A stretch of DNA of 26,350 nt. Source: Candidatus Eiseniibacteriota bacterium (GTDB taxonomy: Bacteria; Eisenbacteria; RBG-16-71-46). Each line of letters begins with the position of its first letter. The first letter of the stretch is position 1. Positions 1 through 6,000 of this stretch are shown in pieces. The stretch covers positions 1 to 26,350 of the forward strand of contig JANMQY010000139.1 of the NCBI GenBank assembly GCA_031370785.1, read 5' to 3'. The position numbers are program-made.

Positions 1-3000
1 CGAAGGCTGTTCGCAGGCTCTCCGGCATCGAAGGGTTTCACGGTCACCAGATGCGGCACACGTTCGCATGTCAGTGGCTCGAGCGGGGCGGAAGTCTTGC
101 CGCCCTTCAACAGATCCTCGGGCACGCCTCAATCGTGACGACGCAACGCTACGCGCGACTCTCCGACGAGCTCGTCATGCGCGAATCAGAACGTCTGCAG
201 TCTCACGGGGCTACCACAGGGGTAGCCAGCAATTCTTAAGTCGTTGTGGCCCCGTAGCTCAGACGGATAGAGCAGCGGTTTCCTAAACCGCGTGCCACTG
301 GTTCGACTCCAGTCGGGGCCACCAACACCTAGTCGCCGGTCTTCTCCCGCAGCGCCACCCGCGCCGCTTCCCGCTCGATCAGCTCGTCGGTCACGCGCGC
401 GTATCGCATCGTCGTGCTGAGATCCCGGTGCCCGAGGATCTGCTGGAGGACCGCGAGATTGCCGCCGGCCTCGAGCCAGCGCATCGCGAACGTGTGCCGG
501 CAGCGATGCACATGGAAGTCCGGGATTCCGGTCCGATGCCGGACTCCGCGCGAGAATGATCCAGGGCTTCCGGCCGCATACGGCACCAGCCTGTGTTCGC
601 AACGGGAGATCTCGTCGAGTAGTTCCGGGTTCAGTGGCACGCGACGCAGGCGCCCCGACTTGGTGTTTCCGACCTCGAGCAGCGCGCCACGGACATCGTC
701 ACGCGTTGCGCGGCAAGCTTCGGCCCAGCGCAGGCCGGTTCCGAGGAGGAACCTGAGCACGAACCCAGCATGTCCTGGGACGGCGACGAGCGTCGCGACT
801 TCACGGTCGTTGAACCCGCGTGGAGCCACCTCCGCAATCCGCGGCATGACGCGGACTGGAAATGGTGAGCGCTCGAGCAATCCGACGCTGACCGCCCAGC
901 GTAGAAAGCAGCGCAGGTCGCTCAGCACGTGGGTCACTGTGTAGGGGCTGAGCTTCCAGTGATCCTCGAGCATGAGCCGAAACTCGCGGATTTGGTCGCC
1001 GTTGAGTTCCCTCAGCGTTGTGGGGCTGAGCCAGCCGAGCGCGTAGGTGTCAAAGCGAATCTTCGCGAGCCGCTGGCCCTTGGCATTCCTCGTCGTCGCG
1101 ACATAGGACGCAAGCCAGCGGTATCCCGCCTCGAGCAGGGTGGGACCGTCAGAGGTGCCTTGTTCCGGCGGACCGGGCGTATGGCCCGGAACACGCCGTG
1201 GGCTTGGACATCTGTCACGCGCGGCGACACCTCCGGAAACGATGCCTGCGGGGACCGGGGCAAACGGGTGCGTGGGCAGCGCACTTTCAGCGCACTCTCG
1301 AACCTCACGCACGTCCCGGGCCATGTCCCCCCGGGCCCCCCTCGAAACCCACGGCCCTCCTTGCACGTATTGCAGGCACGTCCCGCGACACGAGAGGTCC
1401 TTTCGGAGGGGCTTGTCTTGACCGACATGCAGACTCGACTGAGCGCGATGCCGCCCCTGGAAGTCCCGAACCCCTCGACGGTCGTGTCGGCGTTGGTCCA
1501 GATGCTTTCCCGCCTGGGCGTGCAAGAGGCGTTCGGCGTCTCCGGTGGCGCAATGGCGGCACTATGGGACGCACTGTCATCGAGCCCACTCGGCGTCTAT
1601 CACTTCCGTCACGAGACAGGGGCCGCGTTCGCCGCCATTGAGGCGTGCTTCGCCAGCGGGCGACCGACCGTGCTGTTCACGACCACGGGACCCGGACTCA
1701 CCAACGCGCTGACTGGCATCGTGGCGGCTCGCGAAGAACGAGCGCGCGTCATCGTCGTCTCGGCGTATACGTCCGCGTCCTCCCGGGGCCGGTTCGCGAT
1801 CCAGGAGACTTCGCGCGGCACCTTGCCTCCGTCGCTGTACGAATCCGGACGGCCGTTCCACTTCGCCACCGTTGTCGACGATCCCACGCAACTCGCCGCG
1901 GTCGAGAGGGAGCTCGCGACTGGCCTCCATCGCCGCAGCGGGTTTGTCGCGCATCTGGCGCTGGACACCGAGGCGCAGCGAGCACCTGCGGCCCAACCTC
2001 AGATTCTGTCGCTGGCGGTTCCGATGTCCGCGGAAACACCGCCCCTCGCGCAGGTCGCGGCTTGCATCGATGCGCTGAGCGATGGACCGTTTGCGATCTG
2101 GGTCGGGTATGGCGCACGCGATGCCGCGGCCGAGGTCGCGACGCTCGCCCGCTGCACGCAGGCGCCGGTGATGTGCTCACCGCGCGGCAAGGGGATCTTC
2201 CCCGAGGATGACCCGCTGTTCGTCGGTGTGACCGGCCTGGCGGGACACGCGTCGGTCATGCGCTATCTGGAGGAGTTCAAGCCGCGACGCCTGCTGGTCC
2301 TCGGCTCACGGCTGGGCGAGCCGACCTCGTTCTGGGATCGCCGTTTCATCACGCCTGAGGGCTTCGTTCACGTTGATGTGGATCCGGAAGTTCCGGGCGT
2401 TGCGTTCGGCGCCGCGCCCACGCTCGCCGTTGTCGGGGACGTCGGAGCAACGCTGCGGGCGGTGCTCGCCGACCTGCAACCTTCGAGCGGCGACGCCATG
2501 CCGGAGCTGCCGCATCCGCGCATCGACCGAATCGAGCGGCGCAGTGACGGCCCGGTACGCCCCGAAGCGCTGATGGACGCGCTGCAGGACTGGGTCGTCG
2601 ATCGCAGCGACGCAACCGTGCTGTCGGAGTCCGGCAACTCATTTTTATGGACGACGCATCGGTTGCGGTTCTCCACGCCGCACCGATACCGGGTCAGCAC
2701 CGGGGTGGGGGCGATGGGTCACGCTTCGGCCGGTGTGATCGGCGCAGCGCTGGCCAGCGGGCGCCGGGCGGTGGCGGTTGTCGGCGACGGGGCCCTGCTC
2801 ATGACCAACGAGATCAACACCGCGGTGAAGTTCGATGCGCCCGTGGTGTGGGTCGTCCTCAACGACGGACGCTATGGCATGTGTGCCCAGGGCATGGACG
2901 CCCTCGGGCTCTCGGCCGACGCAGAGATCCCGCAGGTCGACTTCGCGGCGTTCGCACGCGCACAGGGAGCCCGTGCGACACGTGTCGACCACGAGGTGCA

Positions 3001-6000
3001 GCTCGACGCAGCTCTGGCAGAGGCAATGGCGGCAGACGGCCCCTTCGTCGTGGACGTTCGCATCGACCCGCGGTGCAAGGCGCCGGCGTCGCTGCGCAAC
3101 GCCGCGCTCGCCGAGAAACTCTCCCTGCATCGCGAGCGGATCTTCCCCTCGCGCGAGGACCCGCGGTAACGGTCACTCGATGGAAAACAACACCTTCGCT
3201 ACCACGATCTACGCCCAGGCACCGGCGACGCGGACGTTCGCGTACTTGCGGCGTCTGCAGAACCTCGATGAGTGGACCCTCGGCAGCCGCATGCTCACGC
3301 GCATCGACGACGACACGTTCATGGGCACAGCATCTGGCTACCAGGCCATGCTGTGCTACCACGTGCGCACGCTCGAGCATCCGCGGCTGTCCGCGATCGA
3401 ATGGCAGTGCGGCTACCGTTATCGCGAGTACTTCAAGCAGTACCCCGTGTTCGTGTTTCCTTCGCGGTATGCGGACCCACACGGCGACGAAGACGGCAGC
3501 TACATCCACTGGGTCAGCGTGATCGATCCCGCACGCCGAACCGAGATGATCATGCAGGGGATCTCGGCCGTGCATCGCTACGAGGCGCGAGGACTCAAGG
3601 CCGCGCTCGAGCGCGGGGAGGGGGCTGAGCGGCCCGCCGCGGGGCGATTGTCCGTGATCTCGGACACGATGTGGGTCGATGCCCCGATCGAAATGGCTCG
3701 AGCGTTCCTCGCCGATCGAGGGGCCCTCGCCCAATGGGCGCCGCTCTTTCGCGCTGTCGACGCTGATGCGGGGTCGTTCCTCGACGAGTATGCGCGGCGT
3801 GTCCAGGTCGAGTTCGCCGCGTGCGATCTCGGCGACTACGTGCTGGTCGAGCAGGACTATGCGTACCCCGATCTCGGTGTGGTGCAGCGCTGCCCGATCG
3901 TCCTGGTGCCGTGCGCTCGCGCCTTCGGCCCAGAGGCGCCAGGGTTCCTGCTCCACCGGATCGCATTCGTCCGCAACGACGGGTCGCAGACGCACGGTCG
4001 CACGACGGCCTCCGAACTGAGCGCGGAGAGCATGGCGATCAAGCGTACGCTCGAGGCGCGCGCGGGGAACCTGACCAGTTTCGCTCGCGGGATGAGCTAC
4101 CGCCCCGATCCCGCGACAACCGAGGACGAGATCATGGCGTCACCACCGGACATCTTCGCACCTGAGTTCGCCGCGGATCCTTACCCGCACTATCGCCGCA
4201 TGCGCGACGAGTATCCCCTGTACTTCCACGCACCCACGCAGGCGTGGATCTTGAGCCGGTACGACGACGTCCGCATGGCGCTGACCAACCCGGCGTTCAC
4301 CACCAGGAGCTATGCCACGCAGACCGAGCCCTTGCTCGGCAAGACGATCATCCAGCTCGACGGACGCGAGCATGCGCTGCAGCGCGGGTTGCTGACGCCA
4401 TCGTTTCGCGAGGGGAGCATTCGAGAGCGCTTCTCGAATCTGATCCGCGACGCCATCGACGAGCTGATCGGCGCGGTCGCATCGCGCGGCGAAGCGGATC
4501 TGATCGCGGATGTGGTCGTGCACCTTCCGGTACGCATCATGGCGGGGTTGCTCGGCTTGCCCGTGCACGACCGCGACCGCTTCCGAACGTGGTACACGGC
4601 CCTCATTCAAGGTGCGCTCAATCTCGCCGGTGACCCTATTGTGGCAGCGGCCGGCATCAGGGCCCGGGACGAGCTCGACGCCTACCTGCGGCCGCTGATC
4701 GTCGCCCGCCGCGAGAGGCCGGGCACCGATCTCATCTCCACCCTGGCGACGACCACGGTCGAAGGCGATCGGCTGACCGACGAACAGATCATCCGCTTCG
4801 CGATGCTCATGGTCTTCGCGGGTGGCGAAACCACGGAGAAGGGGCTCGCGACCACTCTGCGCAACCTGCTCGCGCATCCCGACGTTCTAGCAGCCGTGCG
4901 GCGGGACATGTCGCTGCTGCCGCGAGCGATCGCCGAGTCGTTCCGCTACACCGCCCCGACCCACATGGTGCCGCGTCAGACCAGCGAGGAAGTGCAGGTA
5001 TCGGGTGGACTGCTGCCGGCGGGGGCCGATGTCATGTGCTTCCTCGGCTCGGCCAACCGCGACGAGCGTCGCTTCGCCGATCCCGATCACTTCGACCTCA
5101 ACCGACCCGAGGCCGACCCCAAGCGTGCGTTCACAGGCGCGGCCGACCACCTTGCGTTTGGCGGCGGCAGGCACTTCTGCCTCGGAGCCGTACTCTCGCG
5201 TTTCGAGATCGAGGTCGCGTTGAGTCACATCTTAGACGCCTTACCCGACCTGCGACTCGCCGACGAGACGCCTCCTCCCGATGTCGGGTTGTTCCTGCGT
5301 GGCCCAGCGACGCTTCCGGTTCGGTTCTCGAAACCGACGTTGGAACGAATCTCATGAACGCCGGCAAATCGGGATGACGACGCCGCGCGAGGAGAAGCAC
5401 ACATGACTCACAGGACGAACGCTCGGCTCGCCGGCGCCATGCCGCCGCAGAGGCAATCGGCCTGACAATGCTGGGCACCGCGGACCTTCTCGTCCGCGGT
5501 GCCGTACGTCGGCCCAACTTCAGGATGCGGGTTTGATGTTCTGATTCATGCGGAACAGATTGGTCGGATCGAACTTCGCCTTGAGTTTCGCCAGGCGGTC
5601 GTAGTTGGGACCGTAGGCGCCTACTTGCACGCGCTGCGTCTCGTCCTCGGGCATGAAGTTCACGTACACGCCACCGGTCGCGAACGGGGTCGCTGCGTCG
5701 AACAACTCCCGCGTCCACTTGATGCATTCCGCGTCCTGCGATGATTCTCTCCAACGCGTGTGCACGTTCATGATGAAGTCAATGTCGCGGTGAGGATATG
5801 CAGTGGCGCCGGCCGGAAGCCGATTGACGGCCCCGCCGAGGTGCCCGATGAAGACCTCGCACTCCGGGGTCGGCAGGTGGCCCACCGCGTCGCGCACGAC
5901 GTCGAGGAATCCGTCGTCGAGCTTCTTGAAGTCATGCGACTTCCAGTAGTTCCGGGCACCCGGCGTGAGGAGCGGATCGAAGGCCGTCTGCCATCCTGCG

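Follow-up and report, generated by a model that had tools for sequence, protein, structure and literature searches.

A ScyA-like ThDP enzyme and a ScyC-cytochrome P450 fusion in a tRNA-Arg island of Candidatus Eiseniibacteriota, with a predicted oxygenated indole product

We analyzed a window of 26,350 nucleotides from an uncultured sediment bacterium of Candidatus Eiseniibacteriota (contig JANMQY010000139.1) and found that two adjacent genes in a tRNA-Arg island encode a conserved trio: a ScyA-like ThDP-dependent enzyme and, fused in a 725-aa protein, a ScyC-family cyclase and a cytochrome P450. Gene structure, the conserved trio, intact catalytic motifs, selection and a patchy distribution are established here, while the chemistry is predicted only. 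With moderate confidence, we propose that the two genes constitute a minimal biosynthetic unit whose product is an oxygenated cyclopenta[b]indolone and is neither scytonemin nor pulcherriminic acid.

RESULTS

Structure of the two genes

Re-analysis bore out the genes, coordinates and NCBIfam matches that a preliminary description had given for the ThDP gene and the fusion (Table 1). The ThDP reading frame from the ATG encodes 580 aa. The earlier choice of the in-frame TTG as start is plausible, because GGAGGGG (1405-1411) lies 6 nt upstream of it and a GTG occupies the equivalent position in locus L002. The fusion gene contains no internal stops and begins 10 nt past the ThDP stop codon. Both genes are intact and under purifying selection, with dN/dS of 0.11-0.21 in all 23 pairwise comparisons of the three modules (ThDP, ScyC and P450). 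The fusion is not an assembly artefact, since 14 of the 15 closest GTDB loci (all but L013, which carries a frameshift) and 23 of 36 metagenome loci (L081-L116) encode it in a single open frame. The GC content of the cassette is not distinctive (GC3 0.81-0.82 versus 0.78-0.90 in the genes of the window), and a search for a sigma-70 promoter gave 0 matches.

Table 1. Features of the tRNA-Arg island and the two-gene unit within the window
Feature	Coordinates	Strand	Remarks
Second tyrosine recombinase, C-terminal part, cut by contig start	1..238	+	homology
tRNA-Arg(CCT)	248..324	+	integration hotspot beside cassette
Tyrosine recombinase	329..1198	-	PF00589; start uncertain, open frame to 1525; ends 4 bp from tRNA
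ScyA-like ThDP-dependent acyloin (alpha-hydroxy-beta-keto acid) synthase	1418..3169	+	start TTG 1418 or ATG 1427
725-aa ScyC-cytochrome P450 fusion gene	3180..5357	+	
ScyC-family cyclase/decarboxylase, two predicted tandem SRPBCC (helix-grip) domains	3183..4106	+	NF035924 over cut-off, secondary structure
Cytochrome P450 domain	4149..5327	+	nearest solved relative CYP134A1/CypX

Conservation of the trio across loci

Homologues of the fusion numbered 165 proteins at E<=1e-20, and among the 120 of these that were listed, 110 are 700 aa or longer. We examined the GTDB ScyC loci of the best 80 of 297 matches. In 27 of these 80 loci, whose counts are not independent because the loci are related, a P450 of one CYP134-like clade directly follows ScyC; the two are fused in 15, split in 11 and frameshifted in 1. 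The remaining 53 loci are of the cyanobacterial type and carry no such P450 (0/53). ScyB, ScyD/E and ScyF were found in none of the 27 P450-linked loci, in contrast to 51, 46 and 40 of the 53 others, respectively, and P450 and ScyD/E are mutually exclusive across the 80. In some cyanobacterial variants, the partner of ScyC is a cleavage dioxygenase.

The fused forms make up one clade (SH-aLRT 100 in a quick ScyC tree). As originally noted, the ThDP gene sits ahead of the fusion in 13 of the 15 closest GTDB loci; L012 and L015, which make up the rest, begin at contig edges. Locus L082 carries a fusion that is 90% identical, yet the ThDP gene is absent from the 674 bp upstream. In ten of the 27 P450-linked loci the operon is longer and also encodes an SRPBCC protein, an unknown protein and a di-heme cytochrome c. 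An aminotransferase takes the place of ScyB in most split loci: in 7 of the 11 its gene falls within the operon or immediately precedes it, and an eighth shows a partial match. Compared with the longer operon, the two-gene form seems reduced, and it is the split and longer forms, missed by the preliminary description, that argue most strongly for the P450 being part of the pathway. A downstream FAD/BBE oxidase and an alpha/beta hydrolase were excluded as members because neither is found repeatedly next to the cassette, and relatives carry them on other contigs. No description of the ScyC-P450 fusion or of the trio was found in the literature searched, a body that excludes most subscription journals.

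An orthologous LytS/LytTR-type sensor pair accompanies the unit in several loci. This pair, together with the dioxygenase pairing, could suggest a module that is not biosynthetic and instead degrades or detoxifies aromatic keto acids or indoles. We regard such a role as extremely improbable, as ScyA and ScyC catalyse carboligation and cyclisation, and loci of the P450 type do not repeatedly share a gene for a transporter or for ring cleavage.

The ThDP enzyme

The NCBIfam ScyA equivalog model (NF035923) scores the ThDP enzyme at 772 bits (E 3e-232) against a cut-off of 1020, whereas cyanobacterial ScyAs score 1055-1133; the enzyme lies under both NCBIfam cut-offs. It is 52-55% identical to cyanobacterial ScyA and 48-49% identical to the enzymes of two KASIII-linked plasmid examples, which are taken to be of the furanolide (CybE/CybF) type, and its conserved loop motifs match those of ScyA, not of the KASIII-linked type. 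CybE, a KASIII-type partner enzyme, barely accepts an indole substrate (PMC12395478). The best PDB match is BbmA (E 2.6e-60), and the branching of the ThDP tree parallels that of the ScyC tree. His62-Glu63 and the cofactor motif Gly453-Asp454-Gly455...Asn479 are invariant; these residues have a catalytic role in ThDP enzymes. The earlier annotation of a putative ScyA-like acyloin synthase is supported. Some members of the wider family act on other substrates.

The ScyC domain

The match of the fusion to the NCBIfam ScyC model (NF035924, residues 2-309) is marginal, at 405.9 bits against a cut-off of 400, and the fusions of L014 and L015 fall just under it. The domain is 48-52% identical to cyanobacterial ScyC, with which 71 residues are jointly invariant; W32, Y88, W111, H132 and E135 are invariant. 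Four substitutions are fixed in the P450-linked ScyCs (F/Y35G, H76Q, Q86K and F114V), leaving G35, Q76, K86 and V114 as subfamily residues, and these may reflect a changed substrate.

AlphaFold2 prediction of the fusion on a 139-row alignment (pLDDT 93.6, pTM 0.89) models ScyC as two helix-grip domains; the single-sequence prediction (pLDDT 39) was useless. Secondary structure and Atlas agree with this assignment, and the structural look-alikes are SRPBCC proteins. Fold searches with the whole fusion were filled by the P450 domain, and their outcome covers the P450, not residues 1-310. A search for a direct PDB sequence relative of ScyC found none. A single bridging protein, P0330, connects the N-terminal domain to the carbazole synthase CqsB2 (hhalign 96.8%; P0330 to 6ipv, E 2.7e-17), of which ScyC may be a distant relative. 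Glu105 of CqsB2 is not conserved. With this link, both characterised branches of the family, ScyC and CqsB2, cyclise indole-3-pyruvate-derived intermediates (PMC4870267, PMC7466098).

Two of the four clade-fixed ScyC changes are large-to-small, and the ThDP family shows substrate plasticity (PMC12395478); the nearest P450 uses a leucine-derived substrate. These observations would suit the same logic applied to other building blocks, in which indole-3-pyruvate is joined to an aliphatic or a second indole keto acid, or no indole is used, to give a different cyclopentanoid. However, the ThDP loop motifs equal those of ScyA and both characterised cyclase branches act on indoles, and we consider other building blocks unlikely.

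The P450 domain

The P450 domain retains the heme ligand Cys667 (codon 5178-5180), EXXR at 586-589 and the acid-alcohol pair E550-T551. CYP134A1 is its top match by sequence (E 1.5e-76, 32% identity) and by fold, where the staphylococcal orthologue of CYP134A1/CypX aligned with a Z of 50.1 and an rmsd of 2.0 over 386 residues. Members of one CYP family share more than 40% identity, and the 32% observed places the domain outside CYP134; the TIGR04538 score over residues 324-716 is 297 bits against a cut-off of 500. Five described pocket residues of CYP134A1 (Leu64, Arg67, Tyr391, Thr392 and the I-helix proline) are replaced in the fusion by Tyr378, Gln381, Phe705, Leu706 and Thr551. The CYP134-type proline is therefore absent, and the canonical Thr551 is invariant in the P450 clade.

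JGI labels many of these P450s "pulcherriminic acid synthase". This label and the CYP134A1 matches would fit a CypX-type N-oxidation with an N-hydroxy-indole as the resulting iron chelator, or genuine pulcherriminic acid synthesis. Either is very doubtful given the model score, the low identity and the replaced pocket residues, and a search of the carrier genome G000 for cyclodipeptide synthase (PF16715) gave 0 matches, with a positive control in B. subtilis; the JGI label is probably wrong. The P450 of the fusion is the only one found in G000, and no recurring ferredoxin or reductase gene was found in the flanks of the loci examined.

Missing scytonemin genes and precursor supply

The lack of ScyB in the cassette, noted at the outset, held at the genome level: the best match to ScyB tryptophan dehydrogenase in G000 (100% complete) scores 81 bits against a cut-off of 600, and 0 of 10 other carrier genomes have a match over the cut-off. 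Searches of G000 by tblastn, with one query per family, gave 0 hits for ScyD/E and for four putative ebo clusters (taken from cyanobacterial loci and read as ebo from their position), and only generic hits for ScyF and a sugar-phosphate-cyclase-like gene. G000 does encode homologues of trpE/G, C, B and A, a prephenate dehydrogenase and 11 class I/II aminotransferase matches.

The tRNA-Arg island and host range

The preliminary description correctly placed an integrase beside tRNA-Arg, and the product of the truncated second recombinase is 58% identical to this right-hand integrase over 65 aa. The same tRNA lies upstream of the cassette in L001, L002 and G005. The integrase family occurs in 26 of 61 genomes versus 6 of the same 61 for the cassette; G013 carries an integrase relative of 87% identity with the cassette absent, and an integrase lies inside the retrieved flanks in 2 of the 27 P450-linked loci. 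The tyrosine recombinase is an island marker and is not specific to the cassette. A second copy of the tRNA 3' end is absent from the 147-contig assembly, no convincing terminal repeats were found flanking the two genes, and no credible excision joint was seen in four runs of contigs; in L001 and G005, such tRNA 3'-end repeats directly adjoin the tRNA side of the orthologous integrase. The notion of a mobile cassette is supported only in part, and movement by the neighboring integrase is not supported. The two genes are better regarded as island cargo at tRNA-Arg, and the two-gene version has probably spread between phyla by horizontal transfer in this form.

Hosts of the P450-linked ScyC subfamily are Eisenbacteria, Acidobacteriota and Proteobacteria, mostly non-phototrophic, and the best DNA matches among datasets are sediment metagenomes from two studies; no RNA dataset was listed among the matches. 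Occurrence outside cyanobacteria, as first proposed for the product, applies to most hosts, but a Phormidesmis-like cyanobacterium (L018), the sole cyanobacterial case seen, carries the fusion, and a ScyA/B/C set from Methylocaldum marinum was already published as the single non-cyanobacterial case in PMC9796282. This species is not among the 80 loci examined. The ThDP searches of 401 Acidobacteriota genomes (1 carrier) and 401 genomes of the Ideonella family (2 carriers) returned known carriers only, and therefore no outgroup was gained; ScyC had 0 matches in 72,556 plasmids. In the quick ScyC tree, the P450 clade is nested among cyanobacterial ScyC, with long branches meeting in the outgroup, and cyanobacterial ScyC monophyly is not rejected (p-AU 0.49).

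DISCUSSION

Proposed pathway

Together, the ScyA-like synthase and the intact ScyC-P450 fusion predict the oxidised, scytonemin-type indole product suggested earlier. Housekeeping aminotransferases, standing in for ScyB, would supply indole-3-pyruvate and an aryl-pyruvate. By homology to ScyA, the ThDP enzyme would couple both keto acids, the partner being uncertain, to a labile alpha-hydroxy-beta-keto acid. The N-terminal SRPBCC domain of ScyC would then cyclise this intermediate at its indole and release CO2, leaving a 3-benzyl-cyclopenta[b]indol-2-one, which is the scytonemin-monomer skeleton in reduced form. Finally, the attached P450, served by host electron carriers, would oxygenate the ketone by hydroxylation, possibly with further oxidation. 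In E. coli, scyA-C suffice for converting the ketone to the monomer (PMC6282210); therefore, a conserved P450 should do more than this desaturation. The end product would be monomeric and not scytonemin, and a role in signalling, as an antimicrobial or in redox metabolism is more probable than one as a sunscreen.

Alternatively, the P450 could join two monomers by oxidative C-C coupling in the cytoplasm, replacing ScyE and ebo export and yielding scytonemin or a close dimer. The mutual exclusion of P450 and ScyD/E fits this idea, StaP provides a bacterial P450 precedent for aryl coupling (PMC7466098), and the dimerisation step is what E. coli lacks (PMC7997468). We nevertheless judge it quite unlikely: the closest solved relatives are CYP134A1/CypX, with StaP ranking 20th by fold; the long operons additionally encode a PEP-CTERM protein and a membrane di-heme cytochrome c, which look like candidates for a separate periplasmic late step; and a sunscreen has little evident use in sediment. 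Were dimerisation true, the P450 would take over the cyanobacterial periplasmic ScyE and ebo exporter step, two genes would suffice for scytonemin or a new dimeric pigment, the block in E. coli production would be solved, and uncultured non-phototrophic soil and sediment bacteria would be makers.

Relation to known systems

Among known systems, the scyABCDEF and ebo cluster of cyanobacteria (Nostoc punctiforme) shares with the unit ScyA-like and ScyC proteins in the same order; here, however, scyB, scyD/E, scyF, ebo and dedicated precursor genes are lacking, ScyC is fused to a P450 and bears the four fixed substitutions, and hosts are mostly non-phototrophic. Methylocaldum marinum likewise has ScyC outside cyanobacteria but reportedly possesses a ScyB relative, and a P450 is not mentioned in the consulted passages of PMC9796282. 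Bacterial carbazole pathways (ThDP enzymes CqsB3/NzsH, KASIII enzymes CqsB1/NzsJ, cyclases CqsB2/NzsI, aminotransferase CqsB7 and P450 NzsA) resemble the proposed route in an indole-3-pyruvate acyloin, an SRPBCC cyclase that is probably a distant homologue of the ScyC N-terminal domain, aminotransferase supply (with CqsB7 as precedent) and P450 tailoring. They differ in using KASIII and ACP, absent here, and ScyC has two domains, forms a five-membered ring and lacks the CqsB2 glutamate. Furanolide pathways (CybE/CybF) employ a ThDP enzyme of the same wider family with a KASIII-like synthase, whereas the partner here is ScyC-P450 and the loop motifs differ. CYP134A1/CypX pulcherriminic acid synthase is the nearest solved P450, set apart by the identity, pocket and cyclodipeptide synthase differences given above.

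Joint presence of ScyA, B and C has been used as diagnostic of scytonemin capacity and to date it (PMC9796282), with one recorded exception outside cyanobacteria. Because a whole P450-linked ScyC subfamily exists in Eisenbacteria, Acidobacteriota and Proteobacteria, a ScyC match alone, including the automatic NCBI ScyC label, does not equal scytonemin, and this subfamily provides new outgroups for the ScyC tree. If the predicted pathway is right, uncultured phyla make an indole natural product that has yet to be described, and a 4-kb two-gene construct would be enough to test this.

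A ScyA-like gene and a ScyC-P450 fusion gene form a two-gene cassette

The cassette lies beside a tRNA gene and a recombinase gene, as listed in the table.

Features of the cassette locus (window positions)
Feature	Position	Strand	Remark
tRNA-Arg(CCT)	248-324		
Tyrosine recombinase	end at 329	minus	
ThDP enzyme gene	1418/1427-3169	plus	two candidate starts
ScyC-P450 fusion gene	3180-5357	plus	725 aa; 10 nt after ThDP gene

The preliminary description of the first gene as ScyA-like yet below the family cut-off was borne out, as its product scored 772 bits against the NCBIfam ScyA model (cut-off 1020) and 720 bits against the ScyA-related model (cut-off 1000). 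The ThDP enzyme retains the cofactor motifs, and its conserved loops are closer to ScyA than to the two KASIII-linked plasmid enzymes compared. A tblastn search of the host genome (G000, completeness 100%) with this enzyme gave no further homologue at 1e-5, so this query did not reveal an acetohydroxyacid synthase. The proposed domain division of the second gene also held: residues 2-309 scored 405.9 bits as ScyC (NCBIfam cut-off 400) and residues 324-716 scored 297 bits against the cyclodipeptide-associated P450s (cut-off 500). At an E value of ≤1e-20 the fusion has 165 database relatives, and 110 of the 120 listed are at least 700 aa long. The labels of the nearest loci point to Candidatus Eisenbacteria as the probable host. 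At least half of the sampled words of the host genome are present in each of four metagenome runs of sediment type, which come from two studies.

An FAD/BBE oxidase gene (minus strand) and an alpha/beta hydrolase gene adjoin the cassette (window 5520-8415), an association that is not conserved. Three 33-nt repeats spaced by about 188 nt, which we take to be FG-GAP-like, lie inside a probable surface protein (window 9060-9467).

The conserved unit is a trio

Scanning GTDB with a ScyC alignment gave 297 relatives, and the best 80 were examined. One P450 clade (55-90% identical) directly follows ScyC in 27 of these 80 loci, fused in 15, frameshifted in 1 and as a separate gene in 11. The conserved unit is the trio of ThDP enzyme, ScyC and P450; a metagenome locus without a ThDP gene directly upstream (L082) is an exception. 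No P450 of that clade was detected in the fetched flanks, some of them short, of the remaining 53 loci, which carry cyanobacterial labels except for L036. Among the same best 80, ScyB, ScyD/E and ScyF occurred in 0, 0 and 0 of the 27 P450-linked loci versus 51, 46 and 40 of the 53 others. The reported absence of ScyB from the cassette extended further, with none over cut-off in the host or 10 other carrier genomes. On these grounds and the sub-threshold ScyA score, membership of a scytonemin cluster was rejected.

The exceptional L036, labelled Gracilibacteria, has a cyanobacterial-type scy cluster whose ScyC groups with Hydrococcus, and its record is probably mis-binned. Four cyanobacterial loci (L027, L037, L044 and L078, each around position 10001) combine a heme-oxygenase-like gene, a ScyA-like gene, in some cases ScyB, a distinct ScyC clade and a carotenoid/stilbene cleavage dioxygenase, followed in L027 by a Rieske protein; this variant probably makes a different product.

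In 10 of the 27 loci, two of them fused (L014 and L018), the trio is followed by genes for an SRPBCC protein, an unknown 220-aa protein and a membrane-anchored di-heme cytochrome c. A PEP-CTERM protein is present in 7 loci (with a weaker eighth match in L024), and 6 end in a HisC-like aminotransferase gene; an aminotransferase of another kind lies just upstream in L016, with a partial match in L019. Because early-branching fused members retain the extra genes, the two-gene cassette would most simply be a reduced form of the longer operon. The 220-aa protein (L038:12651-13307 and relatives) had no match in Pfam or NCBIfam and gave a weak DUF3108-like signal in the Atlas.

A LytS-type kinase and a LytTR regulator, orthologous between loci (65-85% identical), stand before the ThDP gene in 4 of the 27 loci and in genome G005; in some metagenome loci the pair is nearby, and beside the window's cassette it is absent. 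The pair, directly upstream in L001 (4691-6636), L008, L011, L019 and L190, could be a sensor of substrate or product.

Relationships of the ScyC and P450 domains

An AlphaFold2 model of the fusion (139-row alignment; pLDDT 93.6, pTM 0.89) has strand-helix-sheet-helix repeats at residues 5-146 and 157-294, a short linker and the P450. ScyC is a small family, with 99 clusters (many being fragments) in a set of 1.84 billion representatives, and the Atlas ranking for ScyC placed SRPBCC proteins after the ScyC clusters. The ScyC profile also found P0330 (E 1.9e-4), in which a KASIII is joined to a carbazole synthase domain resembling CqsB2; this cyclase domain aligns to ScyC residues 7-147 (probability 96.8%) and matches CqsB2 at E 2.7e-17, which suggests a bridge between the two families. 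By our own mapping W32, W111, H132 and E135 (ScyC numbering) are common to CqsB2 and ScyC, whereas CqsB2 Glu105 is not shared. Of the 71 residues that are invariant in ScyC, most fall within the N-terminal domain. P450-linked ScyCs differ at four positions from scytonemin-type ScyCs and most deeper homologues: they have G35, Q76, K86 and V114 (a few have Ala at the last) in place of F/Y, H, Q and F, respectively. Two deep homologues annotated as hypothetical come from Microbispora sitophila and an Aquabacterium MAG (P0244 and P0273).

The nearest solved relative of the P450 by sequence, Foldseek and VIA-align is CYP134A1, but every pocket residue named in passages of PMC7731078 differs. The canonical threonine is kept, and neither a cyclodipeptide synthase nor another P450 was found in the host genome. 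CYP134 membership was rejected on the score (297 versus 500 bits), the pocket, the threonine and the missing synthase; that the P450 performs CypX-type N-oxidation is, in our judgment, quite improbable.

Predicted pathway

According to passages of PMC4870267, ScyA joins indole-3-pyruvate and 4-hydroxyphenylpyruvate, and ScyC cyclizes the product with loss of CO2, giving a ketone that needs one further oxidation to become the scytonemin monomer. Passages of PMC6282210 and PMC7997468 describe this last oxidation in E. coli given scyA-C alone, and a dimer that requires ebo export and ScyE. Dimerization by the cassette's P450 itself seems improbable to us.

The host genome encodes tryptophan-synthesis homologues, prephenate dehydrogenase and 11 aminotransferase matches. 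Aminotransferases would supply the keto acids, the ThDP enzyme and then ScyC would carry out the same first two steps as in the scytonemin pathway, and the P450, conserved and presumably oxygen-activating, would then oxygenate the tricyclic ketone. We favor this oxygenation, at slightly better than even odds, as the most likely reading. The same logic applied to other building blocks is the next alternative, though an unlikely one, and a catabolic role we consider very improbable indeed. Nostodione A is an oxidized monomer, and oxygenation of the ketone could possibly lead to an end point of that kind.

Distribution, transfer and genomic setting

Distribution of the cassette is rare and patchy: within the host phylum 9 of 206 genomes have it, all in fused form, as do 6 of 61 relatives (both counts, and kinase/LytTR locus L196, take in unpublished genome G038). 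Among 401 Acidobacteriota genomes one had the ThDP gene, and among 401 Ideonella-family genomes two did, each a carrier already in the set. A placement outside cyanobacteria stands for the Eisenbacteria, Acidobacteriota and Ideonella-family carriers but fails as an exclusive statement, as cyanobacterial locus L018 carries the fusion too. This carrier appears genuine, since one gene beside the fusion has 89% identity to a gene of a Phormidesmis genome; it is the single carrier of the fusion among the 151 genomes in its family.

Quick trees group the fusions in one clade, show a ThDP topology parallel to that of ScyC, and unite the P450-linked ScyCs in a single clade (support 99, distant homologues as root). 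Monophyly of cyanobacterial ScyC was not rejected (p-AU 0.49), and the P450-linked clade may have arisen inside or beside it. Synonymous distances from the window's cassette are alike for Acidobacteriota copies (0.67-1.0) and other Eisenbacteria (L007 and L011; 0.63-0.90), a pattern that fits transfer between phyla. Across all three modules dN/dS is 0.11-0.21.

In the window, L001, L002 and G005 alike, tRNA-Arg(CCT) lies upstream of the cassette, at a distance of about 0.3 to 19 kb, and this island setting upholds part of the earlier view of a mobile cassette. The remainder did not stand: terminal repeats flanking the cassette and an excision joint were sought and not found, nor was a second copy of the tRNA 3' end in the host assembly. 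The neighboring integrase belongs to a family present in 26 of 61 genomes, and its closest relatives are in genomes lacking the cassette (G013, G002, G009, G031 and G024). DNA similarity between the window and L002 ends at the coding boundaries (1406-5331). The cassette is island cargo rather than an established self-contained element.

Host contig C49 carries a second tRNA-Arg(CCT) (169-249) whose 5' half recurs as exact 39-bp copies at 4338-4376 and 7666-7704. These two copies, upstream of the tRNA and 3.3-4.1 kb apart, look like tandem insertions at the tRNA 5' half.

Relation to published work

ScyC outside cyanobacteria is already in print, as passages of a 2022 phylogeny include one from Methylocaldum marinum with 71 cyanobacterial ScyCs (PMC9796282), and some Bryobacteraceae proteins already carry the NCBI label ScyC. 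The fusion and the trio are apparently undescribed, with no description in the matched passages of the literature searched. The cassette is real and conserved, and from its sequence it is predicted to resemble the first half of the scytonemin pathway, to which a P450 has been added.
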